DNA of 64,000 nucleotides from NCBI GenBank assembly GCA_002778465.1, contig PFBV01000002.1, positions 2,312 to 66,311 on the forward strand. The letters run 5' to 3'. The notes beneath the pieces were generated by a model. That model did not search any database and was not told the origin of the DNA. It was given only the letters and a program-made list of their open reading frames with translations. The position numbers and the translations under genes were made by a program. Position 1 is the first letter of the stretch, and every line of letters begins with the position of its first letter. Source of the DNA: Candidatus Magasanikbacteria bacterium CG10_big_fil_rev_8_21_14_0_10_36_32 (lineage in GTDB: Bacteria > Patescibacteriota > Patescibacteriia > Magasanikbacterales > GWA2-37-8). Positions 47,222 to 47,624 of the stretch are shown piece after piece.

Positions 47222-47274
47222 GGAGAGGTGGCTTCTGAGCTCCTGCCTGCCGGTAGGCAGGGGTCGAAAGCGGT
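47222..47274 (+). pseudogene. Decayed duplicate of the first 29 nt of tRNA-Ser(GCU), with a 20-bp palindrome inserted in the D-loop
   Basis: GGAGAGGTGGCT-TCT-GAGCT-[CCTGCCTGCCGGTAGGCAGG]-G-GTCGAAAGCGG matches nt 1-29 of the intact tRNA at 47529; interrupted by TCT and the palindrome. Confidence 0.5.
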
Positions 47275-47284
47275 AATAAAATTT

Positions 47285-47527
47285 ATGTATTGCGTGTATT
47301 TTTTACAAAGTCTGAAAGATAAAGGTTTGTACATCGGAAAAACGAATAATATTAAACGTCGGTTATCTGAACACAACGCCGGTAAAGTTCAATCGACAAA
47401 AAGTAGAAAACCTTTTATTTTGTTGGGATTAGAAAAATACCAAACAGAAAAAGAATGTTTGGCGGCAGAATTAGAATGGAAAAAAGGATATAAACGCGAA
47501 CAATTAAAAGTTAGATATAGTCTATAA
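47285..47527 (+). CDS. Small GIY-YIG nuclease family protein (paralogue of 14865..15125)
   Basis: VYFLQSLKDKGLYIGKTNNIKRRLSEHN GIY-YIG motif; 80 aa; the stop codon lies 1 nt (t47528) before nt 1 of tRNA-Ser. The ORF-track start at 47165 reads through the tRNA fragment and is rejected. Confidence 0.75.
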   Translation: MYCVYFLQSLKDKGLYIGKTNNIKRRLSEHNAGKVQSTKSRKPFILLGLEKYQTEKECLAAELEWKKGYKREQLKVRYSL

Positions 47528-47528
47528 T

Positions 47529-47624
47529 GGAGAGGTGGCTGAGCTGGTCGAAAGCGGCACACTGCTAATGTGTTGTACGGCTCTCAAGGTCGTACCGAGG
47601 GTTCGAATCCCTCCCTCTCCGCCA
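47529..47624 (+). tRNA. tRNA-Ser (anticodon GCU), type II with long variable arm and encoded CCA
   Basis: Cloverleaf: acceptor GGAGAGG/CCTCTCC, anticodon loop CTGCTAA, long variable arm, T-loop TTCGAAT; close to E. coli tRNA-Ser(GCU). Confidence 0.85.

Follow-up and report, generated by a model that had tools for sequence, protein, structure and literature searches.

Architecture of the tRNA-Ser locus

The DNA analyzed here, below called the window, is a stretch of 64,000 nucleotides (nt) from contig PFBV01000002.1 of Candidatus Magasanikbacteria bacterium CG10_big_fil_rev_8_21_14_0_10_36_32 (Patescibacteria). On its plus strand, a small GIY-YIG nuclease gene lies between a broken copy of the 5' part of a tRNA-Ser gene and the complete tRNA-Ser gene. 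The open reading frame (ORF) of the nuclease (47285-47527; 80 amino acids [aa]; TAA stop at 47525-47527) is separated by a single t (47528) from nt 1 of a complete tRNA-Ser(GCU) gene with encoded CCA (47529-47624), which is detected by ARAGORN and Rfam (60.2 bits), is the sole tRNA of the window in both searches, and has its original context on the 3' side. Upstream of the ORF lies the second copy of the tRNA 5' part, referred to here as the relic. Its left part (47222-47241) is made up of nt 1-12 (47222-47233), an extra TCT (47234-47236), and nt 13-17 (47237-47241); its right part, GGTCGAAAGCGG (47262-47273), equals nt 18-29 of the tRNA-Ser. Between both parts, directly before the D-loop GG of the relic, sits a 20-nt palindrome, CCTGCCTGCCGGTAGGCAGG (47242-47261). 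A short, AT-rich leader (47274-47284) without an obvious Shine-Dalgarno sequence leads from the relic to the ORF, and the 243-nt GIY-YIG gene is the sole ORF between the tRNA repeats.

The original prediction had placed the ORF one nucleotide before an intact tRNA-Ser, and these coordinates were confirmed; its further claim, a copy of tRNA nt 1-12 and 13-29 upstream of the ORF, split by TCT and the palindrome, held base by base. A longer reading of the ORF from position 47165 had been regarded as an artefact, and indeed, all homologues begin at the methionine that matches 47285. By chance, two exact colinear blocks (13 + 12 nt) are expected in the window at a frequency of ~4e-10. The palindrome in the relic has one mismatch; as RNA, it would form a stem of 8 base pairs (bp), including one G.U pair, with a CCGG loop. 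Relic D-arm and palindrome form a single long hairpin (86-nt stretch; minimum free energy, -26 kcal/mol).

The best promoter match of the region (10/12) is a sigma-70-type sequence on the plus strand, TTGACT-17-TATTAT with an extended TG (47181-47209), located 12 nt before the relic. Further upstream, a bidirectional, terminator-like hairpin (47104-47126) with a 10-bp stem and a following T run closes the upstream gene and is the left limit of the transcription unit. On the other side of the tRNA, a terminator-like inverted repeat on the plus strand (47690-47733) is conserved (aaaaacaacgac..ggtcgctgttttt) with the empty locus L051 that is described below. A search for a 3' relic of the tRNA downstream of the window tRNA found none, and the downstream DNA is colinear with L051. 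A group I intron or a split tRNA was also considered and rejected: the tRNA is complete and contiguous, and the window contains no match to an Rfam intron family.

The GIY-YIG protein

The product of the ORF matches the Pfam family GIY-YIG (PF01541) with 65.8 bits (cut-off of 22.6; E = 4e-18). In a profile search against PDB, it matched the UPF0213 structures 1zg2 (2.8e-13) and 1ywl (5.8e-12) as well as SLX1 (1e-8). The AlphaFold2 model has a predicted local distance difference test (pLDDT) score of 93.8 and the order strand-strand-helix-helix-strand-helix-helix; with Foldseek, it matched SLX1 (7cq3) with a template-modeling (TM) score of 0.74 and a root mean square deviation of 1.7 A, and the catalytic domain of I-TevI with an E value of ~0.1 and a TM score of 0.5. 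Judged by profile similarity and predicted fold, the protein belongs to the SLX1/UPF0213 branch and not to that of I-TevI or UvrC. The catalytic residues (Y5, Y16, R26, H30, and E62) do not vary among 24 homologues, and the most conserved stretch is the basic C-terminal helix KKGYKREELK, so that, from sequence and model, the gene is predicted to encode a functional-looking SLX1-type nuclease. Beyond the 80-aa catalytic domain, neither Pfam nor the AlphaFold2 model revealed a zinc finger/RING, a separate DNA-binding domain, or anything else. The closest protein homologues are all from Patescibacteria, and no close relative of the nuclease turned up in viral contigs; the wider family has 23,108 cluster representatives at E ≤ 1e-3 and 4,816 at E ≤ 1e-10.

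A conserved cassette in front of tRNA-Ser genes

In 3/3 homologues that were looked up, a duplicate of the local tRNA-Ser 5' part is followed by the palindrome, a few tRNA nucleotides, the ATG of the GIY-YIG gene, and a complete tRNA-Ser at the end of the ORF. A profile scan of species-representative genomes (~185,000 species) gave 40 loci with the pattern used, and 37 of these have a tRNA-Ser on the same strand 3' of the ORF. The search for further tRNA 5' fragments beside GIY-YIG genes, which the original prediction had proposed, revealed a layout common to these 37 loci, namely, a promoter, a relic of the local tRNA-Ser with the palindrome just in front of the D-loop GG, the ORF, and a complete tRNA-Ser. 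The anticodons of the 37 tRNA-Ser genes are GCT (21), GGA (13), TGA (2), and CGA (1); among the remaining loci, two end at a contig edge, and one (L044) is of a different class with flanking inverted repeats. In 33 of the 37 loci, the tRNA starts at most 25 nt from the stop codon or overlaps the ORF; the usual spacing is 2 to 25 nt, and ten ORFs end within the tRNA. The insert is always roughly 300 bp in size and always carries the same small nuclease ORF, which in the window and likewise in ~40 other loci is the only ORF between the tRNA repeats.

The palindrome is present in its canonical form (at most one change) in 33/39 family loci and as a recognizable variant in five more, and in 30 of the 35 loci in which this could be tested it sits exactly before the D-loop GG. 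The tRNA sequence that follows the palindrome reaches nt 19 in some loci and up to nt 43 in others. An insertion point at nt 29/30, as proposed from the window, is therefore not defined. The relic nearly always matches the tRNA of its own locus best, including lineage-specific acceptor stems such as GGTGAGG, GGAGGCG, GGAAGGG, and GGAGGAG, and it follows the local acceptor stem even in close siblings (GGAGACG in L022 versus GGAGGCG in L017 and L021). For the relic to follow local acceptor-stem changes in this way, it must have been regenerated or altered by gene conversion, or else the locus must have been transferred as a whole. The relics of L021 and L034, in contrast, are in an older state than the tRNA, like a passive fossil.

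The same architecture was found at the DNA level in front of tRNA-Asn(-like) genes in more distant subfamilies (L121 and L213). Furthermore, 11 of the 149 best family representatives, from several subfamilies and at several tRNA types, contain the translated palindrome in over-called extensions of the ORF, and the read-through parts translate the 5' ends of tRNA-fMet, tRNA-Tyr, Leu-like, and other tRNAs. From these over-called ORFs, cassettes are probably also located at tRNA-Tyr, tRNA-Leu, and tRNA-fMet genes, and the link of hairpin and nuclease gene holds across subfamilies. One representative has the mirrored layout of an intact tRNA, the ORF, and a 3' relic with the palindrome. A practical consequence of relic and hairpin is systematic over-calling of the ORF (120 aa in the window, 110 aa in P0001, and many other database entries); they can also hide or distort the annotation of the tRNA.

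Two long database entries show repeated units. P0160 (214 aa) is a read-through of two tandem copies, each consisting of a tRNA-like hairpin piece and a GIY-YIG gene. In P0169 (655 aa), two GIY-YIG domains are inserted in frame, each followed by a palindrome-like translation (..GRTRQAG.. and ..CLRQAG..); the host protein gives the impression of a type I restriction specificity subunit, which we presume it to be.

Empty sites and the origin of the relic

ComF of the window has a 100% match in a metagenome-assembled genome of Candidatus Magasanikbacteria. A relative represented by L050/L051 (54% identity in ComF) has the upstream gene order of the window, namely, genes for a TraC-like protein, a VirB4-like protein, a 191-aa protein, and ComF. 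Its tRNA-Ser(GCU) gene (L051) is preceded by TTGACT-17-TAAAAT at a distance of 15 nt and has no relic, no palindrome, and no ORF. The promoter-to-relic distance in the window (12 nt) is close to this promoter-to-tRNA distance, which argues that the relic is the original 5' end that was left in place, and the promoter at 47181-47209 is the original tRNA promoter. By comparison with L051, the extra DNA of the window appears to sit between the original 5' end of the tRNA and the 3' side of the tRNA in its original context.

Unoccupied tRNA-Ser genes also adjoin occupied ones within L015, L016, and L031. Other genes follow ComF, and no cassette is present, in the two relatives that are closest to the window by ComF (81% and 79% identity); the more distant ComF relative L001 (76%) has a cassette that is 96% identical. 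Both empty (L051) and occupied sites thus exist, as was to be looked for according to the original prediction, and its core, an element that was inserted into the tRNA gene and left the old 5' fragment upstream, stood in view of the layout, the promoter spacing, and the empty sites; the fixed point of entry at nt 29/30 did not. The likeness to tRNA-targeting integrative elements that had been seen in the arrangement holds as a loose analogy, as there is no integrase.

Sequence divergence and turnover of the cassette

In the comparison of the window with L001, the ComF genes are ~80% identical and the intergenic DNA is not alignable. The stretch that begins with the -35 box and includes relic, palindrome, ORF, and tRNA is ~96% identical, with a sharp step at the promoter. 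The indel in the relic is partly shared with L001, which shows inheritance and slow decay of the relic. The term "decayed duplicate" in the original prediction does not fit the palindrome, which is not a product of decay and is the most conserved part of the element.

According to Nei-Gojobori estimates, the proportion of synonymous differences (pS) between the window and L001 is 0.13 for the GIY-YIG ORF (synonymous divergence [dS], 0.14; nonsynonymous divergence [dN], 0.016) and 0.50 for ComF (dS, 0.81; dN, 0.13). The pS of the ORF was also below that of the flank in L034/L036 (0.26 versus 0.68), L029/L030 (0.57 versus 0.77), L017/L021 (0.52 versus 0.76), and L025/L012 (0.34 versus 0.56), i.e., in 5/5 sibling pairs (Fisher p of 5e-8 to 8e-3), a result that supports an ORF apparently younger than its flanks. 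The dN/dS ratio of the ORF is 0.11 in the comparison with L001, and the overall range of 0.02 to 0.11 indicates that the GIY-YIG protein is under purifying selection.

The family also includes tandem and ORF-less units (L030, L039, and L129) and a frameshifted copy (L043). In L045 (1360-1761), a single tRNA-Ser(GGA) is preceded by two GIY-YIG genes in tandem, of which the inner one comes from a distant subfamily (37% identity) and has a relic of its own (tRNA nt 1-15), which is broken by different GC-rich hairpins and not by the CCTGCC palindrome. The low pS, the empty locus, the four isoacceptors, the frameshifted copy, the ORF-less units, and the nested genes of L045 together argue for an element that is gained, exchanged, and lost, and not for a fixed operon. 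At the level of sequence comparison, low synonymous divergence and presence/absence point to lateral spread of the cassette. L031 was examined as a proof of a foreign relic and discarded: its ORF is cut at about codon 73 and fused to the neighboring tRNA-Ser(TGA), which makes a secondary deletion the explanation.

The palindrome inside and outside of relics

The variants of the palindrome in relics keep base pairing on the sense strand only. The common T13 form gives a G.U pair, two more C-to-T changes in L039 both give G.U pairs, and the palindrome of L035 has shifted its register to a 6-bp stem; the mirror form A8, which would give A.C, was found only in the scrambled L041. T13 forms are distributed over at least six separate branches of the protein tree (binomial p ~0.016). 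This sense-only pairing suggests selection on the hairpin in sense-strand RNA or in single-stranded DNA.

The exact palindrome is also widespread outside of the family. It was found in at least 120 metagenome stretches and 47 stretches of viral contigs, with contig GC contents of 31 to 71%. Among the matches listed, only 2/83 metagenome sites and 1/56 viral sites are linked to a GIY-YIG gene of this family, so that solo palindromes outnumber linked ones by roughly 40 to 1. The window itself contains a solo copy in the perfect form (53222-53241), which lies in an ORF-free region beside other GC-rich hairpins. In L095, L096, L100, L102, and L016, the palindrome is nested within itself, at its centre. 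Inverted repeats (≥6 bp) flank 10% of the palindrome sites versus 1.7% of controls, and direct repeats (≥7 nt) flank 6% versus 0.9%. A simple insertion rule was nevertheless rejected: hairpin apexes and target-site duplications are enriched, yet each is found at only 6 to 10% of the sites. With Rfam (E-value mode) and ARAGORN, no known RNA (transfer-messenger RNA [tmRNA], RNase P, or other) was found near solo palindromes at 52.8-53.3 kb of the window and in the regions downstream of the tRNA in L009, L029, and L033, regardless of whether the palindrome was kept or removed.

Some individual sites are worth describing. In a high-GC viral contig (L202, 2239-2330), the palindrome is placed in the variable loop of a tRNA-Met(CAT) that ARAGORN calls with 92 nt, and its deletion gives a normal tRNA of 72 nt. 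A second high-GC viral contig (L174, ~8580-8680) has a tRNA-Met(CAT) with the palindrome in the variable loop and no ARAGORN call. The hairpin might be tolerated as a long variable arm of the tRNA-Met. L109 (180-385 and 946-1360) contains an older tRNA-Ala with a different acceptor stem that is split into a 5' part (nt 1-38) and a 3' part, and between the two lies a complete tRNA-Ala(CGC) with a short inverted repeat, ctgctattgcct / aggcaatagcag, on its flanks; the 3' relic of the old tRNA carries the palindrome in the T-loop. Further on in L109 follow a tRNA-Ala(GGC) and tandem 3' relics that are full of GC-rich hairpin kinds, one of them with the palindrome in a loop. A minus-strand gene for an IF-2-like GTPase in L009 contains the palindrome in frame (1328-1347), so that the N-terminal tail of the protein has the additional residues PAYRQAG.

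Model of insertion, expression, and spread

Our data make it rather probable that the window carries one member of a family of selfish cassettes, composed of a 20-nt hairpin and a gene for an 80-aa GIY-YIG protein of the SLX1/UPF0213 type, that are lodged in the 5' part of tRNA genes and spread laterally. In our model, insertion left the original 5' end of the tRNA beside its promoter as the relic, with the hairpin in the relic D-loop, and a second copy of the 5' part directly after the ORF would keep the tRNA complete and functional. This new copy may derive either from the donor element or from a duplication of the target. The mRNA of the nuclease would be the 5' leader of the pre-tRNA, started at the tRNA promoter, and the cut of RNase P at nt 1 of the tRNA would form its 3' end. 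In the ten relatives with an ORF that ends within the tRNA, this cut would remove the stop codon, and expression of the nuclease would therefore be coupled to, and limited by, processing of the tRNA. Movement between related genomes may proceed by recombination, for which the conserved tRNA sequence provides the homology: the left homology arm would consist of palindrome and relic, the right one of the tRNA 3' part. Presumably, the nuclease triggers this recombination by a break in or beside the D-arm or the hairpin. A fitting version is that it binds the hairpin at its fixed position and cuts 3' of it at a variable distance, which would explain the variable end of the relic.

Several observations weigh against this model, in whole or in part. 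An intact tRNA copy is kept in occupied loci, and a nuclease that recognizes the D-arm would cut its own locus. The protein has no DNA-binding domain, which makes a long-site homing specificity of the I-TevI/Seg type doubtful. The palindrome is located inside the relic and not at its edge, which a one-step insertion does not predict. Neighboring empty tRNA-Ser genes in the same genomes have escaped invasion. The cassette contains weak promoter-like matches (47254-47282 and 47393-47421), and a separate promoter of the tRNA is therefore possible. Constraint on the short, AT-rich ORF could account for part of its low synonymous divergence. In the neighbor-joining tree of the proteins (calculated without support values), the branches mostly follow tRNA type with few mixed clades, a picture in line with long residence and seemingly rare switches between isoacceptors. 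Finally, tandem units were dismissed as a proof of re-targeting, since unequal crossing-over between the relic and the tRNA 5' part would give the same product without a nuclease.

A bolder and more doubtful proposal, although not a far-fetched one, is that the hairpin and the minimal SLX1-like GIY-YIG nuclease make up an unrecognized class of mobile elements, with autonomous forms (hairpin plus ORF) and non-autonomous forms (the solo 20-bp hairpin) in many phyla and in viruses. The nuclease would recognize the extruded hairpin and cut at a variable distance. Such elements may colonize D, variable, and T loops of tRNAs, terminator hairpins, and their own centre in many bacterial phyla and viruses, and insertions into essential tRNA genes would survive only where the tRNA is rebuilt beside the relic, giving rise to the layout of relic, ORF, and tRNA.

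Alternative explanations

It is imaginable that the element has to be read the other way around, with the 20-bp palindrome as the primary mobile unit, comparable to repetitive extragenic palindromic (REP) sequences or miniature inverted-repeat transposable elements (MITEs), and the GIY-YIG protein as a trans-acting enzyme, similar to the REP-associated tyrosine transposases (RAYTs) of REP sequences, that binds the hairpin and cuts at a variable distance. Relics in tRNA genes would then be no more than one of the places where landing is tolerated, and a palindrome on its own would be a landing pad or a non-autonomous copy. This explanation overlaps with the cassette model, with the element reversed, and we consider it unlikely. 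It is consistent with the number of exact copies in metagenome and viral stretches over the GC range of 0.31 to 0.71, with self-nesting, with the seats in tRNA loops (L202 and L109) and in frame in the L009 gene, with the enrichment of flanking inverted and direct repeats over controls, and with the translated palindrome in 11/149 best representatives from several subfamilies; moreover, SLX1-type enzymes are structure-specific nucleases, and the variable distance between the hairpin and the end of the relic is as expected for a cut at a distance. However, a link to a GIY-YIG gene exists at few of the listed sites, high-GC contigs in which the GIY-YIG family was not seen also carry the palindrome, the other GIY-YIG gene of the window (14865-15125) lacks it, and most sites have no flanking hairpin or target duplication. 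The opposite extreme is a resident housekeeping gene, i.e., an immobile, SLX1/YhbQ-like repair nuclease that was fixed in a tRNA-Ser operon by one ancient accident, with relic and hairpin as its 5' untranslated region. Strong purifying selection, a protein tree that mostly follows tRNA type, hairpin variants that preserve sense-strand pairing by G.U pairs or a register shift as in an RNA element, and the one intact ORF of this family per locus examined all speak for such a gene. Several findings nevertheless make it improbable in our view. The pattern used matched only 40 loci in ~185,000 species genomes, a patchy distribution, and at the orthologous locus L051 the cassette is absent. Not only four Ser isoacceptors but also other tRNAs harbor it, and in every sibling pair, synonymous divergence of the ORF is below that of the flanks. 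In addition, the relic matches the local acceptor stem (L022 versus L017/L021), and pseudogenes, units without an ORF, and nested second cassettes are all part of the family.

Integrating elements classically enter tRNA genes and leave a partial duplicate of the tRNA behind; the upstream fragment may accordingly be viewed as an attL-like duplicate of an integrase-encoding island or prophage that was deleted to a few hundred bases, and the synteny that is broken directly 3' of the tRNA in three sibling pairs would be in line with this. The chances of this explanation are very small, as no integrase or other gene was found between the repeats of ~40 loci, the insert has a rather constant size of roughly 300 bp with a constant small nuclease ORF, the duplicated part is the tRNA 5' part (nt 1-29) and not the 3' attachment core, and the repeat is broken by a conserved hairpin. 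Chance similarity, or a palindrome that arose as an artefact of sequencing or assembly, deserves hardly any credence. The presence of the palindrome in very diverse contigs had at first hinted at a technical sequence, but the low chance expectation for the two tRNA blocks, the same architecture in independent ENA, NCBI, JGI, and Logan assemblies, and orthologous hairpin positions with evolutionary variants led us to reject such an origin.

Comparison with known systems and significance

The closest known functional analogue of the cassette is SegB, a protein of ~220 aa, with which it shares GIY-YIG chemistry and a gene located among tRNA genes. SegB is a free-standing GIY-YIG homing endonuclease, encoded in the tRNA gene cluster of T-even (T4/T6-like) phages, that cuts inside tRNA genes, is statistically associated with tRNA genes across phages, and drives the homologous-recombination-dependent tandem duplication of segments composed of tRNA genes and segB (PMC13096335; PMC2988022). 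According to the passages of these two papers that refer to Brok-Volchanskaya 2008, it also brings about preferential inheritance of the tRNA region. SegB is much longer than the protein described here, and a C-terminally truncated form is inactive (PMC13096335). Whereas segB is a phage gene between tRNA genes, the present family is found on cellular chromosomes of Patescibacteria, inside the tRNA gene, with a product of 80 aa from the SLX1/UPF0213 branch, and relic plus hairpin are features that are not described for SegB. By tblastn against phage genomes, similarity to SegB could not be detected; the search for homology to SegB or other phage Seg proteins gave only ~35% matches to generic GIY-YIG proteins. 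Free-standing homing endonuclease genes of the T4 Seg type resemble the cassette in presence/absence polymorphism and signs of lateral spread, but the cassette protein has no separate DNA-binding domain.

The best relatives in sequence and structure are the SLX1/UPF0213 (YhbQ-type) proteins. SLX1 has a C-terminal zinc finger domain and needs SLX4; the protein of the window lacks that domain. To our knowledge, no established role has been assigned to bacterial members of SLX1/UPF0213, and we know of no UPF0213 protein that is embedded in a tRNA gene or mobile. In the literature searched, we found no description of an association of SLX1/UPF0213 proteins with a palindrome.

Islands and prophages that integrate into tRNA genes have in common with the cassette that the tRNA is regenerated by a duplicated segment and that a partial copy remains at the other end. 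In contrast, they use a tyrosine or serine recombinase, the 3' part of the tRNA, and kilobases of DNA, whereas the cassette has no recombinase, uses the 5' part, and comprises ~300 bp. Group I intron homing genes in tRNA and rRNA genes are likewise selfish endonuclease genes within structural RNA genes whose function is kept, by splicing in the case of introns and by duplication of the 5' part in the case of the cassette. Bacteria of the candidate phyla radiation (CPR) are known for such insertions in rRNA genes (PMC11270868). The palindrome, for its part, resembles REP sequences with their RAYTs and the GC clusters of fungal mitochondria in that it is short, GC-rich, dispersed, and nested in itself and in structured regions, and as in REP/RAYT systems, a nuclease-type gene is linked to some of its copies. 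However, RAYT is an HUH (Y1) enzyme flanked by REPs, while the GIY-YIG gene has the palindrome on one side only, and mitochondrial GC clusters have no assigned enzyme, while the palindrome described here is 20 bp long and identical across very different genomes.

Endonuclease genes associated with tRNA genes are a kind already known; the pair of hairpin and nuclease gene has a real chance of being a wider class of mobile elements that has not been described. The literature searched contained no description of the palindrome or of a GIY-YIG arrangement with tRNA-Ser or in CPR bacteria. If the cassette model is true, neither an intron nor an integrase is needed for a selfish nuclease gene to live in an essential RNA gene; the 5' part of the latter is split off and rebuilt, and expression of the nuclease relies on the tRNA promoter and probably on processing by RNase P. 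This would add a family of mobile elements to the Patescibacteria, whose reduced genomes are otherwise poorly understood, and extend the SegB-type connection of GIY-YIG nucleases and tRNA genes from phages to cellular chromosomes and to the SLX1/UPF0213 branch. The palindrome, identical in contigs of 31 to 71% GC and in viral contigs, offers a concrete substrate for studying recognition by a minimal nuclease.

Further observations in the window and in related loci

A 22-nt inverted repeat, ATAATTCACCCCGTTAGAGATA / TATCTCTAACGGGGTAAATTAT, whose arms are 95% complementary (14840-15130), surrounds the first GIY-YIG gene of the window (14865-15125; 86 aa; 39% identity with the second). The gene fits exactly between its two neighbors, with no spare base after the upstream stop codon or before the downstream start codon. 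Its surroundings contain neither a tRNA nor a CCTGCC palindrome. L044 (183-476) has the same style of flanking inverted repeats, with another repeat sequence. A second inverted repeat of the window (53097-53213), CCCCGTTAGAAAA ... TTTTCTAACGGGG, has arms ~90 nt apart without an ORF between them and contains the core CCCCGTTAGA, which is the same as around the first GIY-YIG gene; it adjoins the solo palindrome and CCCGAC/GTCGGG hairpins and may be an ORF-less derivative of the first GIY-YIG cassette. Next to it, on the minus strand, a near-consensus promoter (TTGACA-17-TACAAT, ~53085-53057) is followed by ~230 nt with a T-arm-like GGGGGTTCATTCCCCC and a bidirectional terminator (52826-52860). 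This region (52826-53085) gave no significant Rfam family and could be an unannotated small RNA.

Gene order is broken directly after ComF in L046 and L049, the two closest relatives of the window, and directly 3' of the tRNA-Ser in the three sibling pairs L034/L036, L029/L030, and L017/L021; this tRNA locus is a hot spot of rearrangement. In L014, L028, L041, L010, L009, L029, and L033, the region ~40 to 260 nt after the tRNA-Ser, beyond its terminator, contains a tRNA-like segment of ~150 to 200 nt. It begins with the same acceptor 5' strand and continues with an anticodon-arm-like hairpin, a GGATTCGAA motif, and a partly conserved insert of ~100 nt; its end (~150 to 230 nt downstream) has the same T-stem and acceptor 3' strand as the tRNA. 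Rfam and ARAGORN gave no match to these segments, which are either heavily invaded old copies of the tRNA or an undescribed RNA. The motif ..TATCGG..(G)ACCCGAGTAAT.. occurs tens of bases after the tRNA-Ser(GCU) or the tRNA-like segment in the window (47637-47665), L016, L014, and L051, and it could belong to a conserved 3' trailer or to a small RNA.

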